Positions 13,312 to 42,048 of a stretch of 64,000 nucleotides of DNA are shown in pieces. The notes under the pieces are model-generated. The model was not told the origin of the DNA. It saw only the letters and a program-made list of their open reading frames with translations, and did no database searches. Each line of letters starts with the position of its first letter. Positions within the stretch are counted from its first letter, which is position 1. Both the position numbers and the translations under genes were made by a program. The stretch lies in contig NW_024704758.1 of the NCBI RefSeq assembly GCF_018977255.1, forward strand, positions 9,052,001-9,116,000. Direction: 5' to 3'. Source of the DNA: Callorhinchus milii (Eukaryota).

Positions 13312-14434
13312 CTGAAATATTAACAGCAGTTCTGTCACTCACATTGGTTACCAGTGCACACTAATGAACAAAATCAGGTCAACGTAAAGCAGGGATGTTA
13401 CAAGTTCCAGTTGGGAGTTTATATCACCAATCCCGACAGTCCTTTTCTGCCTTTCCTTTGGTTTAGATTGGGCTAATATTGGACACTATTTTAATATCTT
13501 AAGATTGGGATTTAGTGGGATGGTGAGCTCTCACACTTCTGTTCACCACTAGGATTAGATTGGAATCCAGTCTCTTCCGCTCTTTCATGTTAAAGCATAC
13601 TTTCTAAATATTATTGGTTTGGACAGTCTCACCTTAGTTTCCAGTAGGGGCAAGTTCAAGGGAAAAAGGCCTTAGTTTAGCATTGAATCAATGTTCTCAC
13701 TCAAAGCCACAGATAAAACTGGTTTCAGTAAACGGAAAATTCCCACAGGTGCATTAATTGTCACCCTTATTAGTTTGACCACAGCCCAGATTGTTGAAGC
13801 TAACTATAATCTTATTAATAATAATAATACCTTTCACTTGGTTTGGAGCTCGTCCCAAACCACTTCACGGGATATATTGTAAAGTGAAGTGACTGTGTGA
13901 CAATTTGAGTACAGCTTTGCTCCAAAGCTGTGTAATTACTCTGTACTTATGTGTGCCATGAGATTGCTCCATACCATCTCTGGCTCCCTGAGAAACCTGA
14001 AAAACATTTATTCCTCCGCTTGCTGAATGCAAACATTCACAAACCAAAAAGGAAGAAAGGATAATGAATATTGCATCAACATTGGTTGCCCATAAAAAGG
14101 AATAGGATTTGTACGGGTTGCCATTAATAAGAACCACATTCAATTAAGTGGGGGAAGAAATTGTATGAATTAAATTGTATGCAGCTGCTGGCTGTTTGAC
14201 TTTCCACTAGCACTTTTCCAATTGAAACTGAAAGATGAGCGAGCTGGAGGTGGTGGCACATTGCCATCGCTGGCACACTGCACACTGTGGCCCCTGGAAG
14301 GCTAACTGGTCGAGTGAGCATTGATCCTGAATGTCAACAACAACAACAACAATTTACACTTGTATAGTGCCCTTCACGTCAGAAAGATGTCCCAGGGCGC
14401 TGGACAATCAGAAGTTTTGGACCTAAGCTGGGAG

Positions 14435-14753
14435 TGGAGTCCTGCAGCTCAGTGGTTAGAGCACTCGCTTTGCAAGCGAGAGACCTGAGTTCAATTCCAG
14501 GCAGAGGGCGAAACCTTGGGCAAGTTTCCTTATTCCACACAGAACCTAATAATAATCCCTCCAAATCCAAAAACAATAATAAATTGGTCATTTTCAATCT
14601 ACGACTGTTTGTGGGACATTGCTGTGCGCAATTGGCTGCCGCGTTCGCCCACAAATATAGTCAATTCACTTTACAGTGTGTTCTGTGAAGCACTTTGGGA
14701 CGTCCCCCTGACGTGAAAAGCGCTATATCAAATGCAAGGATTATTATTATTAT
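14435..14753 (+). mobile_element. Full-length tRNA-derived SINE (Ala-TGC-like head, partial Deu-like core, L2-type tail ending (ATT)n)
   Basis: A/B boxes AGCTCAGTGG and GAGTTCAATTCC; core ctgtttgtgggacattgctgtgcgcaattggctgcc; tail gcgctatatcaaatgcaaggattattatt; very similar copies at 40845 and 49172. Confidence 0.88.
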
Positions 14754-15989
14754 TAGTTGGGGTCAGTAGGGGTGAAAGGCAGTGGGGGTGGGAGGATGGC
14801 TGAAGGCACGGTCGAATAAGAAGGTCTTACACGGGATATGAAGGAGGCAAGAGAGGCGGTGAGGTGGAGGGTTTGCGGGATAGAGTTCCAGTGTTTGGGG
14901 GCAGAGAGGCTAAAAAAACAGGCTAACTTATTCTGTGGACGCTTGACTTCAAATGCTGCAGCTCATTGCTTTACCAGACTCTTGAAGGAATTAAAGATTT
15001 TATTAGTGGAACCTCTATCTTCGACAGTTTCCGTTTTTTTTAAATAAAAGGAAATGTGTGAGTTAACTTCCAGAGTCACTGCTTTGAGCAGTGGTCTGTC
15101 TGATGGAGGGAGACTTGTGAGGTGCTACTTTTTTCACGTGTCTGGTTGAGATTGCTGGGACACTGACACATTGCATATGTGTAACTAAAAGCAGATGATC
15201 CGAGAATGTCCTGGCATAACAGCCCCCATGAGTACCTTCCAGCAGCGCCTGTGAATGAACAGTGATCAGGTGCAGGAACCCTGGTGGATGTTTTCCTACC
15301 ATAACCTATTGGGGGGTTGAATTATTGTGCTGTGCTGAGTTGAATTATTGCACCTTGGCTAACATAAGCCAGGTGCACAGTCCAGCTTCCTCTTCTCGGC
15401 TCTTAAAAGCCATCTGCCTACATGCTAGATGCATTTTACTCTCCTGTACAGTCTCCCTCACAGTTGCCTATCCTTTCAACGACTCAGGTTGCCTCTTTCA
15501 GAAAGGCGTGGGAATGCCGACTGTGTGAAGAGTCGCTCTATTCTGCGAACGTACATTGCACAACAAAAGCAATTACATTTGTATAGTGCCTTTCACGCTG
15601 GGAGGGTGTCCCAAGGCGCTGGAAAACACACACTTTTAGATTCATAGATTTTTATATATATACATATATAAATTTTTACACATCTACAACACCCCGCTTT
15701 TCCCTTTCTAACGGCAAAAGTGCTTTACATGGTCCTGACTCTCCCCAAGGCAATGTGTCTTGGGTCCCCCAAATGTCTTACTGAACGACTGTGACATTTG
15801 TCATCACTGAGCCCTCTCCAAAGTGAGATTTGCCGAATTAAGGAGAATTTTATGCATTTCTATTACAAATCTGGCCGCTACAGACAGGTGAGCCGGAATA
15901 ACATTGGTAACTCATAAGAGCTTACAAGAAAATGTTTCGAGTAAAAAATGACTCCACCGCAATTACTTCCATTTCATTTGATTGTTTTA

Positions 15990-16417
15990 TTATAATCCTT
16001 GCATTTGACTAACCACACTTTGAGACGTCTCAAAACGCTTCACAGAATATGCTGTAAAGTGAATTGACTGTATATTTTATGGGTGAAACACAGCAGCCAA
16101 TTGTGCACAGCAGTGTCCCACAAACAGTTGTGGATTGAGTGACCAATTTTTCTTTGGGGTGGGGGGAAGGAGGGAGAAGGGATTATTACCTCCAGAAAGC
16201 AATCCACCAACCGACTAACAACTGGGAGGCTGTCAGCACTGTTCGAACAAGTTACGAGGCAAAACCTAATTTTAAAACCACCTCCGTTATGTTTTGCCCA
16301 CAAAATACTCAATCAATTCACTTTACGATGTATTCGGTGAAGCGCTTTGAGACGTCGTGAAGACGTGATAAGCCGCTATATCAAATGCAAGGATTATCAA
16401 TATTATTATTATTATTA
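15990..16417. mobile_element. Head-to-head SINE pair next to the ABTB2 exon 1 donor
   Basis: Minus copy 15990-16260 and plus-strand tail 16290-16417. Confidence 0.8.
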
Positions 16418-16456
16418 AGTGCACATTTCCGAATAGGCGCATTACTGGGTAGATAC

Positions 16457-17049
16457 CTGGAGCTCTTGCTTTTCCTCAGCCTGTCCCCAGCGCTCATGCT
16501 GTACAGGGACAAGGCTTTCACAGAAGCAGAGATGCATCTTTCAGACAAGGACCAGGACAGGATGAGCCTCATGGCGCTCTGGATCTCGAACTTGGTGCAT
16601 TTGGAGTGCAGCACACTGAGCCTCTGAGCCTCCCTGGAAATCCTGACCAGGGCTCTCCTCAGCAAGAAAGACAGTCTTCTGACCGCTTCCTGTGTGAGGA
16701 GTTTCCCGGAGTCCCTGGGTCTCCCTTTCTTCAGGATCTTCCCCACGTCTTCGTCCGTCCACGGAAACTCCTCCAACTCGGGGAGCCGGGGGCATTTGGA
16801 GAGGATGTCATTGCCCTCCGGGTCCTCGGGTAGGACGGTGTTGACCGTGTCCCAGCTGTTGTTGCGGCTGTTCATGGAGCCCGACAGGTACCACCAGTTG
16901 CCCTTGTTGTGGGCTGACTGGAAAGCTTGGGAGTTGGACCGGGAGGAGGACAGACTGAGGGACCTGCACGAATCCCCGGCCCCACCATAACCCGAGTCCA
17001 GAGTCAGATCTTCCAGCGTCTTCAAGGTGGAATTGTACAATCCGGCCAT
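16457..17049 (-). CDS. ABTB2: ABTB2 coding exon 1 (N-terminus and H2B-like histone-fold half)
   Basis: [22 protein letters not shown]...[15 protein letters not shown]...[12 protein letters not shown] matches the vertebrate ABTB2 N-terminus; donor AG|GTATCT (phase 2) at 16457/16456. Confidence 0.93.
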
Positions 17050-18334: not shown

Positions 18335-18495
18335 CCCGGGACTGTCCTGGTGTCTGTGTGTTGTATGTGCGCAGCTCTAACCCGGGACTGTCCTGGTGTC
18401 TGTGTGTTGTATGTGCGCAGCTCTAACCCGGGACTGTCCTGGTGTCTGTGTGTTGTATGTGCACAGCTCTAACCCGGGACTGTCCTGGTGTCTGT
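18335..18495. repeat. 46-bp tandem repeat, 3.5 copies, upstream of ABTB2
   Basis: cccgggactgtcctggtgtctgtgtgttgtatgtgcgcagctctaa at 18335, 18381, 18427 and 18473 (partial). Confidence 0.97.
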
Positions 18496-21400
18496 ACACA
18501 GTCCTAACTTACTTATTGTAAAAATTACGGCCAAGTAAGTATATATCTATTCACTGTACCCTTTCTGATGCAGTCATATTCTTGGTCAGTATTCAGTGCT
18601 GACTATGTAGCTGTGGTCACAATCCCTGGAGAACTTTGGTCCACGCGGAGCTAATACACTACATGTATATTCCTGACTCAAGAATGACATCTCACAGGAT
18701 CACAGATACAGATGGAGAGATGGACTGTATCAGTTTGAGTTTAGCAGTTTGGGATCCAGCTCTGAATTAAACAGCTACTTGTACGATGTCCACCTTTTAG
18801 TGTATACTTAGTTGGTTGTATTGCTGTGGAAGATCTTGGTGTTGTCCGCTTTCGGTATTTATATATGTTACCAGTTCCTTTGGGTGCGAAGTAAGCTTAA
18901 ATTACGCAACGTGACTGCAACACGTACCCATGGTTTTCTTGTACAGTATTTCCAATCAACGTGTGTGTTATCTATGAGAGTAATCAGTGCCTTGCAATAA
19001 TTTACATTGCTTTGCAAACGAGCACCAGCGTGAATTGATTCACCCCACGTTTTTATATATATATTTTTTAATTTGAATCAAAACAATTTTCAATCCACTC
19101 GTAAAAAGATCAGCTGATCTCACAGGATATTTATCGTTTGTTTCGAGAGAAAAAAAAGTAATTGCATGCATAAGGAAAGCAGCGATGTGTGTTTGATACA
19201 GAAACTCATATTTTTTTAATTAAAAACAAGAAAGCAGCCAGATACAGTATACAATCAAAATCTCCTCCAAAATGCTCGTGTTCGATGGGATCATTCGACT
19301 GAAATGACAGCCATCTAATGTAATTTGCAGTCCAGATCACGTCTAGCAGGTTTGTCGCAAAATATCATCGGCAAAAAGGACATGAAAAATCACCTCTCAG
19401 GAATCTCTGACAAAAGCTGCAGTTCAAACAGGATTGGGACACTTTGGTTTCTGGACGTGAAAGGCGCTATACAAATACAATCTTTTTGTTGTTGTTGTTG
19501 TTGTTTCGCTCATTGAATGTCATCTGAATGTACTGCCAGCAGGCACTGATATGAAACGACCTTGATCCTTTCCATGGGACATGTTAGTGATGTTTATCCC
19601 AGTCGCAGCAGCTCTCCAGCTGACACACAGACCCAACACGGCACATGGATTCCCAGGCAGAATATATGAATCCGAACTGCAGCAATGCACATTTATCAGG
19701 TCTCTTTAATCCATGGCGGAACTTGTCTGATCATTAATTACTCTGAGAGATGCACCGCTTAGATTTCTCCCTGTGACAAATCTTCATAGAAAGGATCACG
19801 GTTTCCGGATCTCTGTTGCGTTTTCTTTCATTCGAAATGTGGAGAGGTGACACATACTATTGCCACACCAGGCACTTAATCTGATTTAATAAGGACACAA
19901 CTGGTCTCCAAACACAAGAGGAAACAGAGGCAAGTCTCCTAGATTAATGCTTTGGAACAAGCACATGGGATTTATCCAGCATTAATAGCAGTTAGTTTTT
20001 TTCTCTCCCTTTTGAAAAACGTATTTCATAGTTTCAAGCAATAACCATTTGTTCACATGGACGGTAAGTCAGCGTTGAATGAATAGGGCGGCTTGATGGA
20101 GGGCCTTTTTTTCCTTTCTCCACTATATTGGCCATTAAATACGGGTAATATAATTTTTAGTACCAGTTGTAGTATTGTGGAATACCAATGCAGGAATTTA
20201 ATAATAGAATAGAAGTCCTATTGTGCACCAGAATGGGTCGACCTCCACACATACCTGAGAATAAGTCATTGATCAAATATTTACTTTCACTACTACATCT
20301 GCAGCCTGCTGTGTTTGTATCAGTCTTTATGTTGTAAAACAGTACTGTATATGACAAGTAATAAGGAATAGAAACAAACAAGAAAGGAAACTCGCATGGA
20401 TTTGAATCAGAAAAGTGGGCTCCCATAATGGCCCAGAAACTTTACTCCAATATTAACCAGCAAATAAAAATAGCACAAATGAATGTAAGTGCCTGTGGGG
20501 AAGGTAGGATTAGGGAGTGACTTCAGAAGGGTTGCTGAAACAGTGATAAGCAGTAAGGTTCTGTAGAGCAATGGGCAGTAACTAAGGAAAGAGGCCAATT
20601 CTTCTTTCACCCTCCGCCCCACTCCCCTGTGGAAATGTTCCACCTCTTCAAGGCCCCATAGTTTTGATGATTGCTTTTTTTTAAAAAAATGTCAATTTGG
20701 AGTAATTGATTGCGACGGTATTTTGGAATCCAGAACTCTGTTTAATGTATCCCTCCTGGAGATCGTTCTTGTTTAACTGTGAGTTTCTTCTGCAAAGCAG
20801 GAAAAAAAAATCCGACAACATGATGCTACCCATGTGGCAAAACAAAACATGCAAAGTCCCTGGCCTCAATTCTCCACCTCAACACATCTGCCGCAACAAA
20901 TAAAACCGTTCAAATGTGCCAAACGTGGAGCACCTGAGTACTGTCTGCCATTGATGACAAAACACTTTCTACAGTGGTGTACTTTACCATGTTTCCTTAA
21001 ATCATATAACTATTATGGGAAAAAGGTAGACACTTGGCTTTAGTTTTAATGCTATTTTAGGCTTGGAATGTGCCAACCACACTTGTAATGAGCTATTTAC
21101 GCTTTCTGCCACAATTAACTTGTATCACCTTTGCTACTTAGTGTGATGTTTGATTATCTTGTATTTGTTTTATTTTTCTCCAATGGAATCGACAATACAG
21201 AGGGTTCCAGTTCTATTGACCACGTTTACGAGGTGGCAGAAAATGTTGTGCTGAACTGCCACCTTGTGGACAAACCCACATTAATTCCTGAGCTGCTCTC
21301 TTTGCTTCAACGAGCAATCTGAACTGTTGAAATGAAATGTCTTCCAAGCAAGATTATCGGGTTTAGAAACAGAACCTTGCACAGAGGTGATCTTTACACA

Positions 21401-21554
21401 TGGACAAACCACAGTGAGATGGGCCGAATAGTCTTCTTCTGTGCTGTAAATATCTATGGTCTATAACATAAATCCAATATTAAATGGCAATTTAAAATAA
21501 AAGAACTTGATTGACAGTTGTCTTAAGGACTAACAAGGTCCAAGCCTTTGTGTC

Positions 21555-21870
21555 CATCGTGTGCTGATCTTGGTCAGGGCAGTGTATAAAGAGGGACTAG
21601 ATTGCCTCTGGGCTCAGGGAGTGTTAGAATCTGCCAGGTCACCTGGCCTTAATCATTACCAATAACGTCTGTTGGAAAATGTGGCTGCTAGAAGCTTGGT
21701 GAAAAGAGGATGGAGGAATGGGCTCAGTTCTGATGAGCTGCCGCTCAGTCGCATAGCCTACTGACATTCCTTACCTCGCTCAAGCATGAAGAATGGCAAC
21801 TTTGGTCTTTTGCCCGTGGAACCACAAGTGAATCAGCACCTCCAGGAGAGGAGGAGTAAATTGGAAGGAG
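21555..21870 (+). repeat. Old dispersed repeat, SINE-like; related pieces at ~9590-9780, 31935-32150, 60995-61110 and 62540-62700 (-)
   Basis: Shared degenerate motifs gagttagctgatctc, gcttggctgtgatg, atagcct.c.gaca.tc, tcagcacct.caggagagg. Confidence 0.55.
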
Positions 21871-24800
21871 AAAGCGAAGGAACGTAAGGGATGATAAAAG
21901 TTGAAATTGCAGCAGATGTAAGTTGGTTGCACATCAGAGTGTGCTAACTCTGCTGACAAGGCTGACAGACTTCCACAAGATCCTTTTGGCCATGCCTGGA
22001 CCTACTGTGTCTGCCTGAAAACTCTGTAATTGTGGCACCAACACTCCTGAAATAAATATCCACGGGAATAAATTCCACTTGGGTCTAGATTTCTGTCACA
22101 TTGAAAACATTCAGAATTTGGCAAATTCTTAATTTCAAAGTCATTTTTCCTCTAAGTTATTTTAAGAATTGTAGAAAAATGACTTCAAAATTGGGACTGA
22201 ATGCAACAAGTTGCCAGTTCCTAGATACTCTGGTAGAATTTCTACCCGCTGAAGTTTAGAGAAGACTAGTTACTGTTCCATTTCATTTCCTCCCATACGT
22301 AAACACGACACTTTGATCGGAGAATGAAATTAGCCAAGGATTGAAATGACCTACTTGGAATGGACGAAATATAAATAAACAAAGACAAATACATTAGCTG
22401 TCCTTTGGCTAATCTCAGTACCAGCTCTGTGCATGAGGCCTACTTTGTTCCTCTTAAGATCCTGTCACTGTGAATGTGATCATTGTAGCTTTGAGTTAAT
22501 TTGGATTTTTAAAAACAACAATTTTGCGAAGTTCTTCTCTGCGTCTGTGACATTCGTTCAGCTGCAAATCACAAGACTTAATTATGACCCATATTGTTTG
22601 TGTTGCTCAGAGAGAAAAAATACTTCCTGGATCACAACTCTATTGGTAAGTAAACCATCAAGCTTTTATTAACAGAGCCACCTCTGCCTTATTTCAGATA
22701 ATGATATTATGCTTTTTTTTAAGTTGACTTCCACTTGGAAAACAGATAATTTGACACTCCAACACAGTGTTGGGGGAATACTGCAAAGTCAGAGTTGTTG
22801 GCCTTCAGATGAAATGTTAAACCAAGGTCTTGTCTACCTGTTCAGGTGGATGTTAAAGATCCCATGGTATTAATGTCTGGGCAGATTAATACTGTAAATA
22901 GAACTGCTTTGAACAAACTTTCCTCTCCTTTCCCCCCCACCCCATCCACTTATACTTAACAAATGCATGATGTTAGACTAGAAACATCTCAAATAATTTA
23001 ATAATTATATGTACATTTGATACAATGCCTTATCATGCTGAAACCATCTCCGAGACCTTCACAAAATGAGGTATTAATTGCAATGACTCTTATAATGTAA
23101 CCAAACCATAGCAGTAAAATTGCACCAGAAAATTCTTGCAAACAATTAGATGAATGGCCAATTATTTTTGTGGATGAGGAAACAAAATTGGACTGGACAC
23201 CGGGAGAAGGCCTTGATTTTCTTTGAAATAGTGCCAGGAGATCTTTAAAGGCCACCAGAGTGGGCAAGTTTAATACTTTGTTTAATACCTTGCAAGCACT
23301 GGCTTATTCCACATTCTCTGCCCTACCTCCTCCACTATTGGCAGTCAGGCCTTCAACCTTTCTGCCCCCATCTTCTAGAACTCCATCTTGGAGCTTCTCC
23401 GCATTGCCCCCTTCCTTGCCTCAATCAAAGTCCACCTCAAGAACTTCCTTTTCGACCGTGTCTTCGGTCATCTTCCCTACTCCACCACCCCACCCCTGCC
23501 CTCCACCCCCCTCTGATCCCAACCCATCCATTGGGTGCCAAGCGCATATGGTCAAGCACCTCAAGTTCTGAATAAGCAATGCAATGTAATGGTAGCAATG
23601 TGCAGAAGTGCGAAACCGGAAACTGTAAGAGAGTTCCTGAAAATGCAATCCAATCCAATGATGAAAACAGACTTGCAGGTTATTCCTCAGCTGCACGTGA
23701 ACAGGAAAGATGATTCTGTGTAGGAGTCTTGTATTCAGAGTATACGTCTCCCCACCCCCCCCCCCCCTCCACCACCCACAATTCCTGATTATCCACTTGA
23801 TTTTTGTAAGCTTTTGAAATATATCCTACGTGATGGACTGGAGGTAGAGTAGGTGTTCTGGAAGGATGAGATCAAATAGGTCAAAGGGTCTATCTAATTC
23901 ATTCCAAACCAATCTTGTGACATGTCTGCATTCCAAGTAAGAGCTTGTAAGAAACTCTATCCATCACTTCAGTGAAATTCTTGTCAAGATCTACGACTGA
24001 GTATGATCTGTGTATAAATAGTCGAGAATAAGCAGAGACCTTTGGCAGGTCAGTGATATAGCAAAGGACACAGTCTCAAGTCTCGAGGAACAGCAAGGTC
24101 AATCAGATTTGTGGCACAGCGATTAGTTCTTGATATTTGCCCATTAGACTGAACAACCATTGATTCGTCTCAATTGCTAAGCAAGTGTGTATGGTAATGT
24201 TGACTGCTTGAAAACCCTTTTGAATTGAGATGCACATTATTGCTTTGCAAAGACTAAAAGTAAAGTTGATTCACAGGTGTTGATAATGTGGTGTGTGCGT
24301 GAAAATTACATGGCTGATAAAATGCGACTTTCTCAATTATTTTATAAGTAAGGGAGATAGATATTGAAATCCTGGGTTAGACCTTAGCAAGTCTGTTTCT
24401 AGTTAATAGGTACTAAGTAATAGCAATGACACCAGGCAACAATAATAATAATAATCCTTGCATTTGATATAGCGCCTTATCACATTGTTGAGACATCTTA
24501 AAGCGCTTCACAGAATGCACTGTAAAGTGGATTGACTGTATATTTTGTGGGCGAAACGCGACAGCCAATTCCATATAGCAGCATTCCACAAGCAGCCGTG
24601 GATTGATTGAACCAAATTATTATTTTTATTTCTTTTGCAATACAAAGTAAGAATTGCTCAGGTTTTATTGAGCGTCCTAATAGTTTCCTGCTTATTTCCC
24701 CTACGGTTTGACCTACTTATTTTTAATTTGAACAGTGGATCGAGTATCTTCACTTCGTCTCAGCATCAATTGTGGTTTTCAGAATTTTTTTTATCCATGA

Positions 24801-26805
24801 CAGGAATGCATACACATGCCTGCAGTCCTGTTCGACTAAAGATGAGATTCCAGCCCTCCCTGCGGTTTTTTTTTAACTGTGTGCTCTTCAGTGTAATTAA
24901 AAACATACTGCAAGTTGATTCTAATATGGTTCCATCGTGTAGTGCGGAAAATCAGGAATTGGTGGCAATATCTGCTGGCTTATTCCCTTCCCCTGATTTT
25001 TGAATACAAACAGGAGCACAGGATACAATAGCGTTCAGCTGGTGGATGTTGTCTGGGAAATGGTGAGTAGCTGCTGAGGGTATGGTGCTAATTGTCCATC
25101 TGAAAACCTATTTCTTTGTGTTTGCCAGCCAACAGGGTATGTGGGTGCAGAAACAGAGGAATGAGGAGTCTGTCCAAAACCCAAAGTACTGTGATACTGG
25201 GTGCAGCTGTTTTCTATTCAACTGATTTGAATTGCACCAAGAAACCATCATTCAGAGGAGACACAAATTCTGGGTGAACTGCTTACGAACTGATCTATTT
25301 TAGGCTCGAGAGTTCCTGTATTAACCCCCTGAGAGCAGATCAGCCTTTTGCGTGTATTCAGTGTAAAGTTTTGTTTTTTGTTTGTTAACTTGAATTGTAC
25401 TAAATTGTAACGACACATTAAAAGTATGGAATAATTTAATAACTGCAAGGCTAATTGTGTTCAAGTATGAATATGATACATTTAGAAGTTATGCATTTTT
25501 CTGACTTATATTAATGGTTTCATTTGTCCATGATATATTTTTTAAAAAGCAACCCGCAGACATTTAACCTGTCTGAGCGATATTTAAACGTCTGCAGTGG
25601 AATTTTGTCAGTAGACAGTTGATGGGAACCCCAGCTGTTGTAGAGGTAGTTACTAACAGCCTAAGATATCATGCCTATTTCTGGCAGAGATTGGCGCCTA
25701 CACATTAGCCCTTATTAGGGATACTACAATTGATCTTCAAAATTCTCTTTCTGAGACTCGTCCAGGCTATCACTGCATTAACATAAACACTACCCCTGGC
25801 GTACTGATGTCTACAAACGCAGCAGATAGAAATCCAGCGAAGTGGGTAAGTGCAGAAAAAGGAGTCAACAGTTTGATGATAACATTTTATTGATAGGGGC
25901 AACAAAAAGTTGATTTCTCTATTTATTTATATCCTTTAGATTACGAAAAATCCTTTATTCATTGGGTTGGCAGCTGGAGTACTAGTGCATGGGCTTCAGG
26001 TCTTTGGTAAAGTGGTGGTTTCACAGTGTTCTTTCACACGTGTGAAATAACAGGTTCAGAGCCGCTTAGTGTTTGCACAATTTAATAGGGCAGCTTTAGC
26101 TTCTATCAGGAGTCGCGTATGTGTGCGCTAACGAGAATCTCTAACTGGGGGACTGTAAGATACTGGCAACTCTTTCACCCTTGCTGAAACCTTAACAACT
26201 TATTCTGCCACAATTGAGCACTGAGGGGCATTGCTGTTGAGGAAAAACTGTTCATAAAACTAAATTGTACTGCTAAGAGCTTTACTGTTTATGGAAGGAA
26301 TTTAAAACGTTGTTTCTATAATTACCATCTCTGCTCCTATAACGGGGCCAGTATAAGATATTAATAAACCCTATTGATGTGACTTGAGATTTGATATTAA
26401 TTCGTTACTAGGGCAGATTGATAGTTCCAGTAGGACGATGGGAGTTTGTTGTGTTTGTCCAGTAGTATGTTAAACGTTTGAACCTAGCTGTGCTTAGCAA
26501 CTGCAATGTCATAACTATAAAGCTGTGCCTGAACTCACTACACTTTACTGTATGTCTGTCCTTCATTCAAAGTGCTTTGAGATGTCTTCCTGATATGAAA
26601 GGTGTTAGTGTGGGCCTTTTGACTATTGCAATGATTATTATTGTTGGTTGCTGCAAAAATTGAAAACACTAGTTGAAGTGGGTAAAGCTTACTTAACTCT
26701 ATCTCGTGTTTAGATCACTGGATTGCGGGAAAATAGATGTCTGAGGTTGATATATGCATCAGAGAACAAACATAGTGTGAAGAAAATCAAGAGAAGACCA
26801 CCACA

Positions 26806-29157
26806 ATGACAAATATGTTGGGAAGTTCAGAATCCTTCTGGTCCAGCGATGTCGTTCAGGATCCATCTGGTTCGAATGTCCCTCTGATCAGAACTGACAG
26901 GAACTATAGCTTCAATAAAAAGACAGCGCATCGAGTCTCATTCACTATCAGCATCCCGTACTGTGAACGCTTAGATGGTCATAATGAAGAAAAACTGGCC
27001 AAATATGAGAGCAGGATTTCTGAGCTAACTTTACCAGTCTCACACACTGTAAAAAAGCTGGTTTGGCACACCTTCCCTTTCCTTAATTGGTTTCTTGGGT
27101 ACAAAGTCAAAACATGGTTGTTGGGCGACCTACTTTCGGGACTTAGTGTGGGCCTTTTGACTATTCCTTTATCCCTTGCATATGGAGTTATTGCAGGGCA
27201 GCCATCTATTAACGGACTCTACACAAGTTTGATCTCTACAGTCTTATATTGCTTGCTTGGAACAACGCCACACATGTCCTATGGTGCATCTGCGTTTACT
27301 GCTTTGCTCATTGCCAAACATGTTGGCCACATTGAATCTGGGGAGCTTGTTTCAGACAGTGACTGTTCTCCAAAATGCTCAATGGAGTTGCATGTGGTTA
27401 CCCTCACCTGTGTCTCCGGAATTATTTTGATTTTAATGGGGATTTTTCGCCTCAGTTTCCTGCAGATGTACATCTCCAAGCCTGTCATAAATGGCTTCAA
27501 AGCTGGGACAGCTTTCAATTTAATAATCATCTTGCTGACTATATTACTTGGTATTGATGGTCCAATTCATCATGGCCCATTGGCATTTGTCTACACTCTC
27601 AAGGATATCATTGAAAACAATGAAATAAACATTGGCTCTCTCATTGCTGGTCTAGCCACATTAGCATTTCTGATCCCTTTGAAAATAATAAACTACAATT
27701 ACAGTAGACATCTCTTTCCCATAGAGTTTATTGTCATGGCTATTGCCATCGGGATGACACTCTGGTTGGATCTAGAGGACAACTATAATTTCAAGTTGAT
27801 AAACTACCAGCCATTTACTGCACCGCAGCTTGTTCTCCCTTCTCTCTCCTTAATATCCAGTGTTATTGCAGACGCTGTTTCCATTGCATTGGTGACTTTT
27901 GTAGTTAGCCTATCAATGGGAACTGAGATCTCCAAAAAGCACAATCATAGTTATCACCCACATCGCGAGACTCTGGTTTTAGGGTTTTGTGACCTGATCC
28001 TCTCGTTTCTGGGTGCTTTTGCAGTCTCTGGAGTTTGTGAGCAAACTGTGGTGCAAGAAAAAGCTTGGGGTCAAACCCAAGGCGCAGGCTTGGTAGCAGC
28101 AAGTCTTTGCCTTACTGCTCTGTTCTGTGGTCAAACCCTCCTTCCACTTGTGCCAAAAACTGTTCTCGGTGCTATTGTAATTGCAAATCTGGGTTGTTAC
28201 TTAGAGTTCTTCAGGAAGTACTGTTTTGCGTGTAGGAGGAACAGATACGATTTTCTGGCTGGAATTGTTACATTTGCAGCAGTGTGTTTGCTTGGGATCG
28301 ATATTGGTTTAGCAGTTGGCGTATTCTTTTCACTTTTGCTCACTCTCCACAGACTTCAAAGACCTTCTATTGCCATTTTGGGCCATATTCCCAACACAGA
28401 AACCTACACCGACTTGTCCTTCGAGAAGGCCGCCAAAGAGATATTGGGAATTAAAATTATAAAGACCTTCGATTCTGTTTATTACGGCAATGTTGATTTT
28501 TTTTTGGCGTGGCTGAAACGCAAAGTGAATAGTTCTCTTCTGCCTAGTGGGAATTCAAGAACTGAGAGTGCAACGTACAGTGAAGAAGATAAATATAATA
28601 TGTTATGGGAATCCACGCAATTCCTTGCATTGGATGAAAATGCGCTCAGGCAGATTAGTCGCACAGCACTGTATAGACATAGAAGATCCAAACATACTGC
28701 TAATGTGCATACTGTCATTTTGGATTGTGGATCAATTAGTTTTATAGATGATGCAGGGGCCAATGCTCTAATATGCTTGTTTGAGGAATACCAGTGTAAA
28801 GGGATTGACTTTGTCCTCGCCAGTTGTTCTAATGCAGTTTTAAATGGCTTAAGAGAATACGATTACTTTAAAACTACCAGACAAACCTTTACCTTCAACA
28901 GTGTCCATGACGCTGTTTTATACGTCTTGCAGCAAACCACAGAGCAAAGTCACACGCTGCAAGGATCTGAGTGTATTCTTGAGACAAATGGTGAAGACAT
29001 ACTAACTGAGTATGACACAGAAGATGAAATCAAAATTGACGTTAATTCCACAAATGGTGAAGTGTGGCAAAGGGAGAAGAACCAGAGGTACTCTGATCAG
29101 AGTTTGCCCTGGGTAGCTGGAAATCAGAGAATTATAGAATATGAGACAACTTTATAA
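26806..29157 (+). CDS. Intronless SLC26/SulP-family anion transporter-like protein, 783 aa, with STAS domain and C-terminal PDZ ligand
   Basis: Continuous ORF with GDLLSGLSVG, GLYTS, GTTPHMSYG, VQE..GQTQ.AG, LGIDIGL, STAS motif VILDCGSISFIDDAG, C-terminus ETTL; acceptor tgtttag at 26713; ATTAAA at 29325. Confidence 0.93.
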   Translation: MTNMLGSSESFWSSDVVQDPSGSNVPLIRTDRNYSFNKKTAHRVSFTISIPYCERLDGHNEEKLAKYESRISELTLPVSHTVKKLVWHTFPFLNWFLGYKVKTWLLGDLLSGLSVGLLTIPLSLAYGVIAGQPSINGLYTSLISTVLYCLLGTTPHMSYGASAFTALLIAKHVGHIESGELVSDSDCSPKCSMELHVVTLTCVSGIILILMGIFRLSFLQMYISKPVINGFKAGTAFNLIIILLTILLGIDGPIHHGPLAFVYTLKDIIENNEINIGSLIAGLATLAFLIPLKIINYNYSRHLFPIEFIVMAIAIGMTLWLDLEDNYNFKLINYQPFTAPQLVLPSLSLISSVIADAVSIALVTFVVSLSMGTEISKKHNHSYHPHRETLVLGFCDLILSFLGAFAVSGVCEQTVVQEKAWGQTQGAGLVAASLCLTALFCGQTLLPLVPKTVLGAIVIANLGCYLEFFRKYCFACRRNRYDFLAGIVTFAAVCLLGIDIGLAVGVFFSLLLTLHRLQRPSIAILGHIPNTETYTDLSFEKAAKEILGIKIIKTFDSVYYGNVDFFLAWLKRKVNSSLLPSGNSRTESATYSEEDKYNMLWESTQFLALDENALRQISRTALYRHRRSKHTANVHTVILDCGSISFIDDAGANALICLFEEYQCKGIDFVLASCSNAVLNGLREYDYFKTTRQTFTFNSVHDAVLYVLQQTTEQSHTLQGSECILETNGEDILTEYDTEDEIKIDVNSTNGEVWQREKNQRYSDQSLPWVAGNQRIIEYETTL

Positions 29158-30292
29158 TGAAAATATTTGTTTTGAACCATAACTGAAACTGGATTGATAC
29201 AGTAACCTAAATCAGCTGTTGTGTTTCTGCTGCAATATGCTGTTAAGTTTTTCTATTGCATTGTTTGTAATAATAGACAAAGAATTATAGGCTTTTCTGG
29301 AAAAACTATATTTGTAGTGTATACATTAAAAACTATTTTCTCTGTAGTCTTGTCACTGCAAAGTAACCAGATCTAGACAACACTGGAATAGGAAAGGAGA
29401 AAAGCAAAGCCACTAGTTGTTTGCAGACGTTCATACTTTGCATCTACTTTACTGACAACGTTCTGTTGTTACCAATTATTTTTGTTGAATTTTCTGCATC
29501 ATCGGCAACATTATCCGTAAGATATGGGAGTGATGAGGTGTGTACTGCCCTTGGAAATAGGCAGATTTGGACCTTGTCCAGCCATTCGTGCTCCAGAAGG
29601 TATGAAGCTTAGTTATTTATACATAGTCTGGAGATCAAGGACCACTAATCCCCTGCAATCTCCTGTGTTCCCGGTGGGAAAGAATTGGGCTCCAATTGTC
29701 ATCTCCAAAATCATTGCCACTAGTGCAAGGGTTTTATACATGTAATATATTTCCTGCTGCTACTCTGCCTTCATAAAATAATATGAATGCATCATTTACA
29801 TATTCTTCTTCTTCATTGTTTTCCATTTTTATCCGTGTAGGCCATCTTTACAAGTTCTTGCACATCTTAAACTCATTTACAATTTACAGAATTTACAACT
29901 TGCCAAGACTGTTCACTTATTTGTTTCAACCATCCAGTTGGTTTGCCTCAGAATTGGTACTGGTAATTTCCAATCAAGGAGAGTTTGATGTTAACTGGAA
30001 TTGTGTGTCAGCTGAGGTTCAGTGTTCATTTAACAATGATGGTAGTTCTGAGAAACTGAACATCGACTCCATTGACCTGAAAGTCCACTTCGTCTGATGA
30101 CTATTTTGTGTTAAAATTAAAGATGGCACAGAATTGTGGAAACAATTTCAATTCAGTCTCAATTTGAATTTTTTGTTTTTTAAAAAAAAAGAAAATTGGC
30201 TTCCAAATTAAGAATTTTTCACAATTCTACACAGACCTGAATTTTTATGACAAGTCGGACTTAACAGGCTCAAGGTATGTGGAATTTCAGGC

Positions 30293-30713
30293 CTTCGCTT
30301 GACTCATTGGTACTCTTGCCTCCGAGTCAGAATGTTGTGGGTTCAAATCCCAGTTGGGACTTGAACTCACATAGTCTAAGATAACACTCCAATGCAGTGC
30401 TGGGGGGTATTGCATTGTTGGAGGTGCTGTCCTTCAGATGAGACGTTAAACCGAGGTGGATCTTAAAGAACCCATGGCACTATTTGAAAAGAGAAGGGAA
30501 TTTCTCTCTTACGGTGTCCTGGCCAACAATCCCCCTTAATAAAATTGGTCACTCACTCCACGGTTGTTTGTGGGATTATTGCTGTGCACAATTCTGCTGC
30601 CACATTTACCTGCAAATACACAGTCACTCCACTTCACAGTAAATCCTGTGAAAAGCTTTGAGACATCCTTCCGACGTGATAAGGCGCTATACCAAATGCA
30701 AGGATTATTATTA
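30293..30713 (+). mobile_element. Deu-domain SINE (SacSINE1/AmnSINE1-like), near full length
   Basis: tRNA-like head, then ggaggtgctgtccttcagatgagacgttaaaccgagg...cccatggcactatttgaa core and L2-type tail. Confidence 0.8.
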
Positions 30714-33700
30714 TAGTTCTAAAAACCTGATCCCTGTAATGGAAGCTTCTCTTTGATGTAAAACAACATGTTTTGTTGCACAATTACAATGCGACTGATC
30801 ACAATAATGTTGAAAGTGTTTTAAATGCAGGAAACGTGCATTAGAATGGTTAAAAATAAAATTGTCCACAAATTGTTACAAATGAAATGGAGCAAAATGC
30901 ATCAAATTCACCGGTCACATATTTAGCTAACAAAAATTATCCAATCTATCTGCAAAATGCTTTACAATGTGCAAATAATTCCAATGGGAGAGGCAACATC
31001 TGGATCCTGTCATTGATTTTTGGAGTAAAGCGCATACAACTGCTTCATTTTTACACTTGGGAAATAAACAGAAAATTAGTGACTGCTCTTTAATCTCACA
31101 TGGCTCTATCATTGAATGTAGCGTGATAATGAAATTGAGCAAATGGGCAGAATTCATTATGGCAGTCCTTTGGCCATTTTTTGGTTCAGCACCACAGCGC
31201 AACACAGTCTCACATACTTCCAGGTGGTAATTCACCTCACTTGGGTTTTTGTTAAAATAATTTTTATGCAGTGAAACTCCACTGGCCCAAGAATGAGCTC
31301 TTGGACAGACACGTGGTTCACATTCACCTCAGTAGGAATTTCACATTATACAAAATTGTTACCATAACTTTTGAATTGAATGTTTCACAGGCCTGCAAGA
31401 CTTCTTAATAGATCAATACTTATAATAAGATATGAATGTAAAAAGTAATAATTCTTGCATTTGATATAGCGCTTTTCACGTCTTCTGGACGTCTCAAAGC
31501 GCTTCACAGAATAGACTATAAAGTGAATTTACTGTATATTTTTGGGAGAAAGATATGAATTTATCATTCACAGGTATACCAAGCATTCTAGAATTAACTT
31601 AGAACATGTCTCACTGCTGAGGCTGTAAAGTACAATACATTCCAGCCATGTGCTACCGTAGATTATCGTGATTTACCTGTGTGTGTCTTCTGATCAGAGC
31701 CATACAAAGCACATGGAAACCTGGCTCTGATTCTGGGCCATTCTGAGAAAAATAGAAGATTATAATATTGTGCTACTGCACTCTCCAAACAATAAACATC
31801 ATTATCCCCACCTCTGCATTTTTGTTAATAATTGGTAACAAGTGTCTGCTTGCAGCTCTTTTCTTGCATATTCCTGACTGTTCAGTGGGTCAAAGGGTCG
31901 TGCTACTTAGAGAATTTGAAGACTTCAGTCAGATTGGATCTCTGGTCTGTGGTGAGTTAATTGATCTCACGGGACACGAGTGGGTGGGTTACAAATTAGC
32001 TTGTGTTTTCCGATGCCCGAGATGTGAGCATAATGAGCGAGGAATTTTGCTTCTGACTCTTATCCAAAGAGCCCTTTCAAGAAAAGGCATGTTGGTGTCA
32101 AGCAATAAGAATATCAGGCTTGGCTGTGATGGCCTCCACCCCCACTGACCATCTTCACACAGTCACACAGTCACACAGAGATAGATCACACAGAGACAGA
32201 TCTCTGTCCAGATGGCATATACGGTTTGCTACTTGGCGAGATGCAAAAAGAGAATCATTGCTACCTGTAGGGATACGCACCAACCTAGGTTTTATAATAA
32301 TAATAATAATAAAGTTGTCATCTTCAAGACAGGAAAGGCAGGTGGTGTGGCAGGGAAGACACGCCATTGTGAAAATACAATGTAAAATGCAACAAAAGAA
32401 AATTACATTTTTTGCACATGTCTTTTTTTAAATAAAAAGTGTATTTGGTGAAATGGGAACGATTCCTAAGCAGTAGCTGAAACTCCGAAACTTTCTCCAG
32501 CTACGTTAACCCCTTCTCCTCCACCCACCAATAAAAAAATATAAAAATGATTGAAGGTGAAACCAGCTTTCAATGAGCAATTCTATTTTACATCTAATCT
32601 TCAGTGTGCGCGTGAAGCCAGAGCCATTCCTTTGGTACACCCACGGTTACACATAATTCTGGTGCAGTAAAGCAAACCGAGATTGTAGTTTGATTCCTTT
32701 CAATCTGTGAAATCTCTCGAATCCTTCCTGTGCTTTAACTGTTGGGTTGAGCCTGACTTTTAACTGGAACCACAATCAAACTCAAAAGCAATTCAGCATT
32801 AATTTTGGCTCCCATACTTAATGCTGGCATAAAACGCCCCTATTGAGTTCCATGCCTATTAAAGTATTAAATAATCAAAGCGCAGGAGTGCACAAGTTGA
32901 TGTATTTAACTACTGTACTCGAATTGCATAATAATCTGTAGATCATTGCTCTACAATTTATTCGTTCGAGAGGCAACCCTTCCTTGTTCTGGAAAATGCA
33001 GTCTGCCATTGCCAGTAAATATTGTACCAATGAAAAAACAAACGTATCTAAGAATTTCCCTTCACGTCGAGGGAAAATCATGATGCATCAAATTTTCAGT
33101 TTATTTCACAATTCCTGTACATGAATAGGGTTGAATTTAGAATAGAGACATCTGGCGGACATTAAAGCCACAAAGACAGAGTTTTACTATCCGAGTTCGA
33201 TGGAGTCGAAATCCCATCGATGGGGATTGTTACAAATGCCCATCTTTTCGCTGCTGCTTTAGAATGGGAAACTGCAGTAAATGGAGTAACAGAGAACAAA
33301 TGAATACAAATAGCCTTCTGCATCACCGTTACTTTTCATCCGTCACTGATATTGTCATGTATTTTGCTAAGGACCTTGTTGATGTACCACCCCTCCCCCA
33401 ATTGATAAGTTCATTACATGTCGTTGGAAAAACCAACACACACATTTTCAGACCAGCCAAACACAGTTATGCCATTGAAACATAACTTTTAATCCAGAGA
33501 CCGTTAATTTTATGTGAAATCTTACCATCACAGACAACAATCCCCCATATAAAACTGGTCATTCGGTGCACAAGTTCTTTGCTCGGTTCACTTGACAGAC
33601 AGACCGACCGACCGACCGACCAGCAAGGTACATTTCATAGCAAAAATCCTGTGAAGCACTTTGGGGGACGTTTCAATGACGCGATAAAGCACCTCAGTAC

Positions 33701-35368
33701 ATCAAACGCACGTGGATGATTATTTCTATCGCAATTACTAAGGCGATCGCCTCCAAAAAAAAAAGCCAAATGAATAAGCCGGTCAAGAAAATTGAAGGGT
33801 CATCCAATATCTATCGTGTTCCTTCTGGGAGCCTTGTTAATTTACGGGATAACTACCCGCATCCCGCAGACGCAGGGCATTCCAGAGACCTGGCAAACTG
33901 GTGTGTTTGCAGTGAGAATAGCATGACCAGTGAGTAAATATTTTCCCAGTCGTGGACTGCTGTTCCTGATCACAGAGTTCTTCAGCTGCACTCTCTGTCC
34001 AGAACAAATTGTCCCTGCTCCAATATACGCCAGAGCTTCAGACTGCAAACCACTGCAATCCAAAAAACAAAACCCAAGGGGACTTGGTCAAATAAGGACT
34101 GGGTGCAACTGAAGGAAACACCAGAGCTAATGATGTGTGTGTGTGGCATAATCAATAAAGATGCACCATCAACAACTTGACATTTCCTGGGGAAAGAAAG
34201 TAAAGCTGGATATGTCAGCAACGTGCAAACCCTGCAGTTTTCAATGAACTTGGACGTCATTTGCATTTGAATCACAGACTTTTGTGACATTGGGAGGGGA
34301 GGTTTTGTTGTCCTGCAACCAGAGCCCTGGGATAAGTCTGCTGCTGGGTTTTAAAAGCAGTGAAGTGTTCAATGATTTACTCCCACTGTTACAATACTCC
34401 ACGAGTTCAGCACACAAACGACTCTCACTTTAAACGTGAAAGGGTCGAGTTGGGTGAGTGCTGATCCATTCCTCTTTCAGGTTAATCGTTTTAGCGTTGG
34501 TTAAAAATAATAATGATTAATAATAATAACAATAATTGCAGCCCTACAAACAATACCTGCAATAGCACTGGCTTTCCTGATCCACACTGATCGTTTGCAA
34601 CTCGAATAAGGAAATAACACGTCGAATTAGATTGGTTTAACTAAGATGTTTAAAATAAAGAATTGTCCTTTGTGCACTAAATGACATGGCAAGGAGTATC
34701 TTAAAACACAGATTTATATAAATAAAACAATGATTCAAGTGCTGGTATTTAATAATAAATAATCCTTGCATTTGATAGAGGCACAATAAGTTATTATTAG
34801 AAGCAGAAAGTGGCTGTCAATTCACAAGCCTCTGATTTACTGCCAATACCTTGTAACAGCTTTAAATCTTGTAAGTGGATCCAGGCTTGGGTATTACGAA
34901 ATTATCTGCGTGTCATTTTTCCAAATGTCTTTATTTCAAATTTATCGCAATCAAACTCTTTATTCCCCCTTAGGAACAGAGGCGAGATTCGGATTTATTT
35001 GATCTATTTGGAATATATGCTCGTTGGGTTGTGCACCTTCTCCCCCTCCCGATAGAACAACAACAGATTACATTTGTATTGCGCCATTCACGTCGGGACA
35101 TAGTCAAGGATCCGCACCCGAGCTGGTGGTTGGGATCAGGAGGGGTGGAGGGCAAGGAGATTAGGGGTAGGAGGGGTGACCGAAAGCACGGTCGAAGAAG
35201 AGGGTCTTGAGACCGGTCTTGAAGGAGGCAAGGAACTTTTAATCATTTAAAACTCACTCCTGTTACCCAATGCATATGAGTTCTTTTTAACATACAAATG
35301 GTCATTCAGTTGACTGCAAAAACTGAAGCTTATTGTGATCTGTTTCTGCTTGTGCTTTTAGACCAAGA

Positions 35369-35546
35369 ATGCTGCCTTCCTACGTACCTCAGTCCATTTC
35401 AGATGGCTTTGCTGAGGATTGCTGGGAGTGGGACATTAATGCAAAGTCACCAGCAGCGCAACTTTCTCCTTGTCGGAGAGCAGTTTACTTTCACATCGAC
35501 CCTGTCTTAAAAAGTGTAGGTACAGCAGGAGTGAGAGGAACAAAAG
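35369..35546 (+). CDS. SPSB3-like SPRY/SOCS-box protein, coding exon 1
   Basis: WEWD...FH...GTAGVRGTK resembles SPSB3 WVWD...FH...GTAAIRGTK; acceptor ttttag at 35361; donor G|GTGGTT. Confidence 0.82.
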
Positions 35547-36742
35547 GTGGTTATTCCTTAAAACTTTCATTGTGTTCATTTTCTTGCGAGATATTCTAGT
35601 ATCATCTGTGACAAATTGAGACGCTTCGTAATATATCACATCATGTTCTAGAATGTGAAAGGACACTAAGATATCCACTGCACCATTCACTTCTCCAGTT
35701 GATGTATTTTCTATAATAAATAATAATCCTTGCATTTGATATTGCACCTTATCACGTCTTCGAGACGTCTCAAAGCGCTTCACAGGACACCCTGTAAAGT
35801 GAATTGACTGTATATTTTGTGGGTGATTTTAGAGATTTTATTTAATGAATCTAGCATTGTCCTTGGGTAACATTTGACCCGTTCTGGTATTAAGTGCAAT
35901 TCACTGACAAGTTTTATGATCTATGCCTCTTTGCTGTGGTTTCGGATTACTTTATCCAATATTCTCACCAGCCCTGCCGTCCAATGATTCACATCCATTC
36001 TTCTGATCAAATCATTTTGCAGCTCACTACAGATATTATTGCAGCAGGGTTCCTTAGCCGCTATACTTTACTGTGTCCTGTGAAGCGCTTCAAGGCATCC
36101 TCTTGATGTGAAAGATGCTGTAACAAATGCAAGGATTATTATTATCAACATTATTATATATCCATTGCTTCTACCCTTACTGCACTAATCATCTCCAGAT
36201 TATGCTTCATCGGTTCTTTCTAATCATGTTTTCTCACCAACTTTTTCCTAACCGTTTTGTCTCGCCTCCCACTTTAGTCATGTTCGTGGTAACTCTCCTT
36301 GCTCTGATCTGTGGCAGCTTCAAGGCAGGAATCATCGGCAGTAGTTGGGAATCGTTAAGACCTGATGATCCATTTTCATTTGGTCAAATCAGACTTGATG
36401 CACACAAACATATACCTTCAACTGGGTTGGAGGATTCATAACAAATGCTTTGACAACAGCTTAAATACAAATTTGGAGGCTGATTTGCAAAAAAAAAGTT
36501 AAATTTGGCTGCTATTTTGCAGTCGTGGCCCCTTCTTTAGCATCTGTTTATTTAGGGGATTCTCGTGACCCAGTTAATGAACTCAGTACTGAATAGTGCA
36601 GTTCTCATAGTGTTCAAGCACAGAGATGTATCCTAACTGTAGCTCTGTTGTAACGGAAATGCCAATAATTGTGGCCTTTTAACATTGTTGTACAGATGTA
36701 AGGAAACACACTCTTATATTCACAGTTGTTCTGTTTCTGTAG

Positions 36743-36874
36743 GTTTCAACCACGGGGAGCACTACTGGGAAATTGAGTTTCTGGAACCTCCCTATGGCAC
36801 CTCTGTGATGGTGGGGGCTGGAACAAGACGAGCACTTCTGCATACTGGCAATTATCAATTTATAAATATGCTCG
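36743..36874 (+). CDS. SPSB3-like coding exon 2 (SPRY)
   Basis: GEHYWEIEFLEPPYGTSVMVGAGT; ctgtag acceptor, G|GTAAGT donor, phase 1/1. Confidence 0.88.
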
Positions 36875-37611
36875 GTAAGTCACTTTTAATATAATCGAGA
36901 AGAATTTTGCATGGGTCTGTCTTACATTGTGTGGTATATAACTTGGTCTTGTGGGTGCCAGACTAGTTGAGGTTAGCATATTTGCAAAGAACGTTCTTGC
37001 CTCGGATCGTGATCAATTTTGCTTTAGAATTTCATCAAAACCCCTTTTTTGATTTAATTGCGCCCAATGTGCCCTGAGATGCATCCTTTACTGTTCTGGG
37101 GTTTTGTGTGCATTACCCGTCAGCACACAGTAACCAGATGTCAGCACAAATTTCTGCATTCCACATTCATGTTCTACAGTTCACAGTAGTGTTCCTCATA
37201 GTCAAGAGGATCTATAACAGATCACACCACGCTTTAGTGTCTTATTCAATTTTGTTTCTATGTGGGGTCGTGCTTTGCATCCCAAGAGAGTTACAGAGCT
37301 CTGATTTTAAAATAAATCTGCAAAATACAGCTTCCCCACATTGACAGACTTGGAAACTGCTGTCTGAGGAATATCCTTTCTTACAGGGTGCATTTTTATA
37401 GCAGTGTCAGTAATTTCTTCTGGTGTTGGTGGGGCCAAGATGGTACTGCATCTCACTCACAGATGCAGTTAAGGGACTCATTGTGTTCCAGTTATTATTA
37501 GGTAATGGAGATTATTATTTTGAGCCGTCGGTGTGAGATAGATACCCAAAGTCCAAAAACAGGAAACAATGAGCTAAATTAAAAGGTTATTTCCTTCCTT
37601 CCTTCCCACAG

Positions 37612-41959: not shown

Positions 41960-42048
41960 CACTGCGCATGCTCCGAGGGCGGGTCCCGTGGTCTTCCGCC
42001 GGAAGTGAGCGACAGGAAGCGGAAGTGGCGGGGGCGGGCGGCCCGGCC
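41960..42048 (+). promoter_or_regulatory. PTPMT1 CpG-island promoter with NRF1-like, GC-box and tandem ETS/GABP sites
   Basis: TGCGCATGCTC at 41963, GGGCGG at 41977, CCGGAAGTG at 41999, AGGAAGCGGAAGTG just upstream of the ATG; typical of nuclear-encoded mitochondrial genes. Confidence 0.7.

Follow-up and report, generated by a model that had tools for sequence, protein, structure and literature searches.

A candidate further SLC26 subtype of cartilaginous fishes with a glutamate at the predicted anion site

In prestin (SLC26A5), the anion site is formed by Q97, F101, F137, L397, S398 and R399 (bioRxiv 2021.08.06.455374; this and all other papers are cited from the parts of their text that were available). 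The same source reports a Val at the Arg position of transmembrane helix 10 (TM10) in SLC26A9, and in SLC26A2 residue Q125 holds K442 (PMC11059360). There are two coding exons in SLC26A1, A2 and A12 and about twenty in the remaining slc26 genes, and one old intron is common to all of them (PMC12357937). Here, we compared these systems with a gene found in a 64,000-nucleotide stretch of Callorhinchus milii DNA (assembly GCF_018977255.1, contig NW_024704758.1, positions 9,052,001 to 9,116,000; hereafter the window), which encodes a 783-residue SLC26 protein at 26806..29157. The gene and all of its features described below lie on the forward (+) strand. As judged from its sequence, the gene represents a real, old chondrichthyan SLC26 subtype, whose predicted pocket is plugged by an acid in a manner unique among the proteins compared.

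A sequence-only reading of the window had described an intact 783-residue open reading frame (ORF) with a STAS domain, an acidic tail and a terminal ETTL, and all of these were recovered in a frame without stops. A Sulfate_transp membrane domain (PF00916) spanned residues 105-488 (27118..28269; E 1e-65). The STAS domain (PF01740), which contains a short intervening sequence, spanned residues 542-703 (28429..28914; E 3e-11). Both were above the Pfam cut-offs. The AF2 model, built on 146 sequences (pLDDT 91, pTM 0.87), revealed a 14-helix core/gate fold with the TM3 and TM10 half-helices. The model matched most animal SLC26 structures, with Foldseek TM scores of about 0.8 (prestin, A2 and A6 included) and VIA Z-scores of 44-53, and an ESM Atlas search returned SLC26 clusters only. 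The modeled fold and the domains place the protein in the SLC26/SulP family. Prestins were the best sequence matches in the Protein Data Bank, and the overlay with prestin gave a TM score of 0.82 and a Z-score of about 50 at about 32% identity; the database name of the protein is also "prestin-like".

Residues at the predicted anion site

The TM8-TM10 region aligned without gaps with the prestin and SLC26A2 chains, and in the model the TM10 helix began at residue 411 and the TM3 helix at residue 163, which bore out the manual pocket alignment of the sequence-only reading. L122, S162, V410, E412 and Q413 were found to be equivalent to prestin Q97, F137, S396, S398 and R399, and the six prestin anion-site residues Q97/F101/F137/L397/S398/R399 were replaced by L122/Y126/S162/C411/E412/Q413. 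In particular, Leu122 (27169..27171) stands at the TM1 Gln (prestin Q97, SLC26A2 Q125), Ser162 (27289..27291) stands at the TM3 Phe (prestin F137), and V410-C411-E412-Q413 (28033..28044) forms the start of TM10 (prestin S396-L397-S398-R399; SLC26A2 A439-L440-A441-K442). Compared with SLC26A2, A441, K442, Q125 and F165 were exchanged for Glu, Gln, Leu and Ser, and both positions of the Q125/K442 partnership were therefore replaced together. Of the engineered prestin mutants S398E and S396E, S398E, made to probe the role of the bound anion, has a natural counterpart in the Glu at the S398 position. In contrast to those mutants and to prestin itself, the present protein also carries the equivalents of Q97L, F137S, S396V and R399Q.

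We examined these positions in 26 full-length orthologous sequences, namely the window's own, 23 named records from 21 species and two unnamed records; a 52-residue fragment was excluded, as was a shortened duplicate of the protein from the window. L122, S162, V410, E412 and Q413 were invariant in all 26, Y126 was Phe in 25 and C411 was Trp in 21. The TM10 start had been read as SGVCEQTVVQE; its Glu and Gln held in every sequence, but its Cys did not. Likewise, the NQEL motif had been read as HRET (27961..27972), of which the Glu was kept but Arg387 proved particular to C. milii, as 10 of the 11 aligned orthologues had HQET. The canonical anion-exchanger pocket combines a TM1 Gln, a TM3 Phe and a small TM10 residue followed by Arg or Lys, and in its place all 26 sequences carried Leu, Ser, Glu and Gln. 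By this predicted pocket, the protein would not be a canonical anion exchanger. Seven of the nine pocket-lining positions were invariant, against a background of 44% (P about 0.04).

Glu was absent from the 412 site in all three comparison sets (0/149 library representatives, 0/55 distant homologues and 0/120 A2-type proteins; 0/324 in total). The 149 representatives included one gap and one Asp at this site, the latter in an unnamed protein (P0149) in which the TM10 Arg was kept. Gln at the 413 site was likewise found in none of the 149, 55 or 120 other proteins. The Leu at the TM1 Gln site was not unique, as it was present in 4 of the 149 animal representatives and in 28 of the 55 distant homologues; Gln occupied this site in 133 of the 149 other animal SLC26 proteins, and a Ser at the TM3 Phe site was found in 2. 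Judging from these sets, only the Glu412 and Gln413 states appear to be absent elsewhere, and Glu412 is the sole change that we name as unique. The claim that the rewired pocket is distinctive was thus upheld for Glu412, which no other protein examined carried, but not for the TM1 Leu or the lost TM10 Arg, which occur elsewhere. Position 232 in the gate helix TM5 (Lys232; 27499..27501) was Lys or Arg in all 26 orthologous sequences and in 0 of the 149 others, and this basic residue is a possible partner of Glu412.

Gene structure, distribution and origin

Contigs assembled from four read sets guessed to be RNA (4 of the 12 sets listed), none being recorded as such, were aligned to 18500-37000 of the window. 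A 3701-nt contig of the set X1 covered 26713-30384 with no gaps, a stretch that contains an exon (26714..30384) with 92 nt of 5' untranslated region (UTR), the whole coding sequence and at least 1.2 kb of 3' UTR. Upstream, the contig skipped a GT..AG intron of 868 nt (25846..26713; joint 25844->26713, cut +1) that ends 92 nt 5' of the ATG. The 29 letters preceding the joint mark where a non-coding exon further upstream ends (25816..25845), and this exon is followed by the donor GTAAGT; the splice joint rests on a single contig from one run of one study. A loose end at 25376 was disregarded, as it had no match elsewhere in the window. Contigs of the sets X2, X3 and X5 covered pieces of the coding sequence, and those of X2 and X3 also covered the 3' UTR. 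According to the assembled contig from a read set guessed to be RNA, the SLC26 gene is transcribed and spliced. The coding region is one exon, because both the contig and the genomic ORF run unbroken across it; the single-exon structure proposed earlier therefore holds for the coding region but not for the gene, which has a 5' UTR intron.

The homologue search yielded 66 proteins, which were the window's own, ten clusters 64-72% identical to it and 55 distant proteins at 21-32%. All ten close clusters came from sharks or rays and were annotated "prestin-like". Their members provided full-length orthologues, 64-73% identical to the window's protein, from 21 species of these groups. At E<=1e-60, a profile search found the same 11 clusters and nothing more among 8000 candidates. 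In a library clustered at 50% identity, the score fell from 1442 bits for the protein's own cluster to 493 and then 407, the 493-bit match being a 1296-residue nematode protein with four matched stretches. The protein searches gave no orthologue outside the cartilaginous fishes, although unannotated genes would escape them. On the available sequences, the gene appears to be an ancient SLC26 paralogue that has so far been found in cartilaginous fishes alone. The gain of Glu412 and the loss of the TM10 basic residue, the TM1 Gln and the TM3 Phe predate the chimaera-shark split.

Identity to the Heptranchias, Scyliorhinus and Pristis orthologues was 72, 65 and 67%, respectively, versus 70, 69 and 67% for SLC26A2, and identity to any other SLC26 protein was only about 31%. 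Seven of ten coding differences in the contigs were silent, compared with 23% expected (P 0.002; 0.019 when one-third is expected); these are within-species differences rather than a dN/dS estimate, and all three replacements came from a single contig with a depth of 8. Purifying selection on the gene is plain. A chance ORF or a processed pseudogene in decay, which the single coding exon and the low identity to any other SLC26 might suggest, is refuted by the full-length orthologues in 21 species, by a divergence near the rate of SLC26A2, by the silent differences and by the spliced contig.

The relationship to known SLC26 proteins was examined in a 43-row LG+C20 tree, with approximately unbiased (AU) tests on 22 of its rows; A7 and A11 were outside the trees, and an A11-like locus (on contig C20) was omitted for low coverage. 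In the 43-row tree, the clade received support of 100/100, and its stem measured 2.0 changes per site versus 0.37 from chimaera to Heptranchias. In the free trees, the clade fell outside the starred A3-A9 group. The AU tests rejected joining with A5 (p 0.004; 0.0037), A5+A6 (0.027), A9 (0.021), the genome's own A1 (3e-5), its own A2 (8e-5) and A12 (7e-4), but did not reject joining with the A3-A9 group (0.20), A10 (0.15) or A8 (0.28, with one A8 row). With nine tests and no correction for their number, the two p values near 0.02 are weak, and every test is affected by long branches. By these tests the gene is neither prestin nor an orthologue of A1, A2 or A12. The proposal of a separate subtype was accordingly strengthened, and the contrary case, a plain orthologue of a known SLC26 sharing these residues, was not borne out. 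The genome's own many-exon prestin is a separate locus (G000:C5:62.6 Mb).

The gene itself lies on contig C17, apart from all other SLC26 loci found. The others were a many-exon prestin, A6, A4, A3, A9, A10 and A11-like gene and a two-exon A1 and A2; eight of these loci lie on C1, C5 (three), C12, C13, C19 and C27, the A11-like locus lies on C20, and all have at least two exons. Labels were taken from named tree neighbours, except for A1, A3 and A11, whose labels are our assumption (the C20 locus being taken as A11-like by motif). An assignment of the C20 locus to A8 was rejected. SLC26A7 did not turn up in the genome, although no search was aimed at it. The shared old intron, which follows Q191 in the genome's own A2, is absent from the present gene, where both the genomic ORF and the contig are unbroken. 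A coding region without the parental introns at another locus is what a retrogene would have. However, single-intron loss explains this structure as well as retroposition does, because A1, A2 and A12 have two coding exons. The sequence-only reading of an old retrocopy kept by selection was right as to age and selection, but it overlooked the two-exon A1/A2/A12 genes, and retroposition from a many-exon gene was not established.

We consider three routes of origin. With roughly an even chance, the gene is an old sister to A1/A2/A12, the two-exon line, and lost its coding intron by cDNA conversion or retroposition. The gene shares with that line a C187-x-x-x-C191 motif in the TM3-TM4 loop (27364..27378), few exons and the "LDC" of the STAS domain. 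The CxxxC, a subfamily feature defined here from alignments, lies 13 residues before the TM4 Gly in all 26 orthologues, in 108 of 112 full-length A2-type proteins, in the genome's own A1 and A2, in A12 and in human A2; among the 149 representatives it occurred at this place in one, an A12. The clade was only weakly sister to A1/A2/A12, at 65/36 in the best 22-row tree, unstarred, and at 68/87 after two invertebrate rows were added. In contrast to those genes, the present one lacks their coding intron and lies at another locus, and nesting inside A1, A2 or A12 was rejected. Therefore, the gene would predate their split and have been lost in bony vertebrates, or the pairing would be a long-branch artefact. 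In the available part of PMC11145369, slc26a12 is reported to be missing from cartilaginous fishes.

Less probable is that the gene arose as the retrocopy of a gene with many exons, in particular of a fast-evolving SLC26A8-like gene with the parent lost. Joining with A8 was not rejected, a QEK in TM10 is shared, and an orphan A8 retrocopy is conceivable because a genome search with axolotl SLC26A8, itself a lower-bound search, turned up no separate many-exon A8 locus. Against this route, the free trees placed the clade outside the starred A3-A9 group, and no telling poly-A relic was present among the A-runs inspected, although age would erase such relics. Descent from A10 or a deeper line, to which the A10 test (p 0.15) lends some room, is less probable still. 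Diagnostic columns discriminated little (A1/2/12, 6/50; A5, 3/21; A8, 5/67; A10, 5/119).

Predicted function of the glutamate-bearing protein

Several prestin mutants bear on the likely effect of Glu412 and Gln413. S398E prestin kept its nonlinear capacitance (NLC) and was insensitive to salicylate (PMC8755724), and in molecular dynamics simulations S396E and S398E prestin bound less chloride or none (bioRxiv 2024.01.29.577264). In the transport-competent chicken prestin, MTSES on S404C, which places a negative charge at the equivalent site, blocked divalent transport and R405C abolished transport (PMC3988826), while in rat prestin R399Q largely or fully abolished NLC (PMC3988826; bioRxiv 2021.08.06.455374). 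It has been proposed that anion binding folds the TM3 and TM10 ends and that voltage sensing needs a negative charge together with R399 (PMC10699807). Because prestin loses chloride binding with S398E and charge movement with R399Q, classical anion exchange has probably been lost in the present protein, and a prestin-type motor is unlikely.

By analogy with these mutants, the job that we favor, tentatively and at a probability of about 0.4, is that of an anion-blind membrane scaffold or regulator acting through its STAS domain and PDZ-type tail. The carboxylate of Glu412 would occupy the space that separates the helix dipoles of TM3 and TM10, would keep the site folded in the way that anion binding does, and would shut out Cl-, HCO3- and SO4(2-). 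The protein would no longer exchange anions, and the Gln in place of Arg399 would preclude a prestin-type motor. The earlier suggestion of a carboxylate mimicking the bound anion agrees with the published S398E and S396E data. The tail (residues 713-783; 28942..29154) contains 16 Asp/Glu versus 5 Lys/Arg and ends in ETTL, which follows the class I PDZ ligand consensus. Only 8 of its 71 columns were invariant, yet the PDZ-type end [RK][IV]IEYE[TS]xL was kept in all 26 orthologous sequences. Through the STAS domain and this end, the protein would anchor or activate a partner, for example CFTR, as SLC26A8 (TAT1) does in sperm. SLC26 proteins, A8 included, activate CFTR via STAS and PDZ scaffolds, and A8 provides a precedent for a CFTR-activating and structural role (PMC6813192). 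A8 also has a divergent pocket; in contrast, it is encoded by a many-exon gene, has no Glu at the anion seat and is 29% identical.

Conservation over 10 matched species was compared with that of SLC26A2. Invariant positions amounted to 110/178 versus 133/178 in the core (62 vs 75%), 63/127 versus 87/127 in the gate (50 vs 69%), 7/12 versus 11/12 at the TM3 start and 65/135 versus 63/129 in the STAS domain (48 vs 49%). A membrane core and gate less constrained than in SLC26A2, an equally constrained STAS domain and an invariant PDZ-type end together suggest a scaffold. Several points weigh against the scaffold. The membrane core retains 62% invariant positions, which, like the conserved pocket, also fits a working site. 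Single pocket changes need not kill transport, because SLC26A2 Q125L retains 40-70% of its sulfate transport (PMC11059360) and SLC26A9 conducts without the TM10 Arg (bioRxiv 2021.08.06.455374). In addition, papers disagree on prestin R399E (PMC8755724, PMC3988826), and many transporting SLC26 proteins likewise carry STAS and PDZ motifs.

It is possible but doubtful that the protein is an elevator transporter that still works, on a new substrate. Glu412 would bind a neutral, zwitterionic or cationic solute, perhaps coupled to H+, in a pocket widened by the Phe to Ser change, so that a switch from anions would have come about by re-inventing a UraA-type substrate Glu. Prestin S398 superposes on E290 of UraA (SLC23/NAT), its uracil-binding Glu (PMC3988826), so that Glu412 lies at the position of a substrate-binding carboxylate. 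Vsb1, an SLC26/SulP protein of yeast, lacks a TM10 Arg, transports cationic amino acids and needs carboxylates at TM1 and at the N-terminus of TM3 (PMC13160679), a precedent for pocket carboxylates that serve non-anion substrates. However, UraA is remote (13-14% identity, Z about 29) and the Vsb1 acids sit at positions other than Glu412, and likeness to either would be convergent. Five pocket changes that became fixed jointly and have persisted from the chimaera-shark split onward, the long stem, as expected of a burst toward a new function, and the excess of invariant pocket positions all speak for a new substrate, but the membrane domain, TM3 start included, is less constrained than in SLC26A2. 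Natural candidates for the substrate are the organic osmolytes that cartilaginous fishes use. A carrier for trimethylamine N-oxide (TMAO), betaine or a similar osmolyte would account for about a third of the probability of this already doubtful reading; the literature matches listed held nothing relevant on a missing TMAO carrier, an uninformative search.

Rather unlikely is an anion exchanger or channel that has changed in selectivity or pH gating, with Glu412 protonated or paired, for example, with Lys/Arg232. The new invariant basic residue at 232, the retained E388, N461 and L462, the absence of the TM10 Arg from A9 and some A8 proteins and the partial activity of A2 Q125L would fit such a protein. 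Nevertheless, a negative charge at this place blocks anion binding and transport in prestins, and four pocket determinants are gone at once. It is highly improbable that the protein serves, for example in hair cells or electroreceptors, as a voltage sensor or motor that works independently of anions: S398E prestin keeps NLC without anions and prestins are the best structural-database sequence matches, but R399Q abolishes NLC, both charges are described as needed for voltage dependence and the tree test rejected grouping with prestin.

Among the top matches listed in the full-text literature searches, which covered mainly non-subscription journals, none described this gene, and the available parts of two family surveys (PMC11145369 and PMC12357937, on A1, A2 and A12) do not mention it. 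This extra SLC26 gene of sharks, rays and chimaeras is apparently undescribed so far, and it would add one more subfamily to the vertebrate SLC26 proteins A1-A12. It is currently mislabeled as prestin in the annotations of 21 shark and ray species, and reports of "prestin" expression in sharks need to be checked against it because of the "prestin-like" name. We checked three such sources. The available main text of PMC11979771 mentions neither SLC26 nor prestin. The "prestin" row in the kidney table of PMC9396271 is prestin isoform X1 rather than prestin-like, with 0 matches in the four supplements. The "prestin" of the PMC5568229 supplement (three places, two transcripts; 10 of 20 files covered) is 64-67% identical to teleost proteins and is therefore another gene. 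The protein offers a natural test of whether a fixed carboxylate makes an SLC26 protein a non-transporting regulator or a carrier of something else, and either answer touches chondrichthyan salt, osmolyte or sperm physiology. If the new-substrate reading is true, a carrier peculiar to cartilaginous fishes has been hidden under the "prestin-like" name.

Further features of the protein and its neighbourhood

The segment RVSF (residues 43-46; 26932..26943) was RVS[FY] in 25 of the 26 orthologous sequences. We take it to resemble the RVxF motif for PP1 docking; it may instead be a structural N-terminal strand, as it aligns with the N-terminal strand of pendrin. Four membrane-domain charges, E374, H386, D396 and K471 (27925-27993 and 28216), were specific to the clade (11/11 orthologues, at most 4% of the 149 others). 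The TM3-TM4 loop (27292-27420) has 43 residues versus a median of 58. The window copy has no N-glycosylation sequon in this loop, while 126 of 147 other SLC26 proteins do, and some orthologues carry one at 176 (9/26) or 186 (3/26). In the genome's SLC26A2 (L027, G000:C13:4171500-4176000), the loop has 29 residues versus 39-58 in 107 other A2-type proteins; a short loop was rejected as a trait shared with A2, since other chondrichthyan A2 loops have 39-43 residues.

Downstream, exons of a SPRY-domain gene (PF00622; 35339-37895, + strand), which we take to be SPSB3-like, lie between the SLC26 gene and a presumed PTPMT1-like gene. Genes that we take to be PTPMT1-like, KBTBD4-like and NDUFS3-like and an ELF5/EHF-like exon lie within 41968-55093 and 63103-63366; the domain scan found BTB, BACK and Kelch domains in the KBTBD4-like neighbour and SAM_PNT in the ELF5/EHF-like exon. 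In the human genome, catalase presumably lies between ABTB2 and ELF5; none was noticed in the window, though no catalase search was made. The first exons of a presumed ABTB2-like gene (12918-17049, - strand) stand head to head with the SLC26 gene. Just upstream of the start of that gene, at 18335-18495, lies a tandem repeat of 3.5 copies of 46 bp that are 99% alike.

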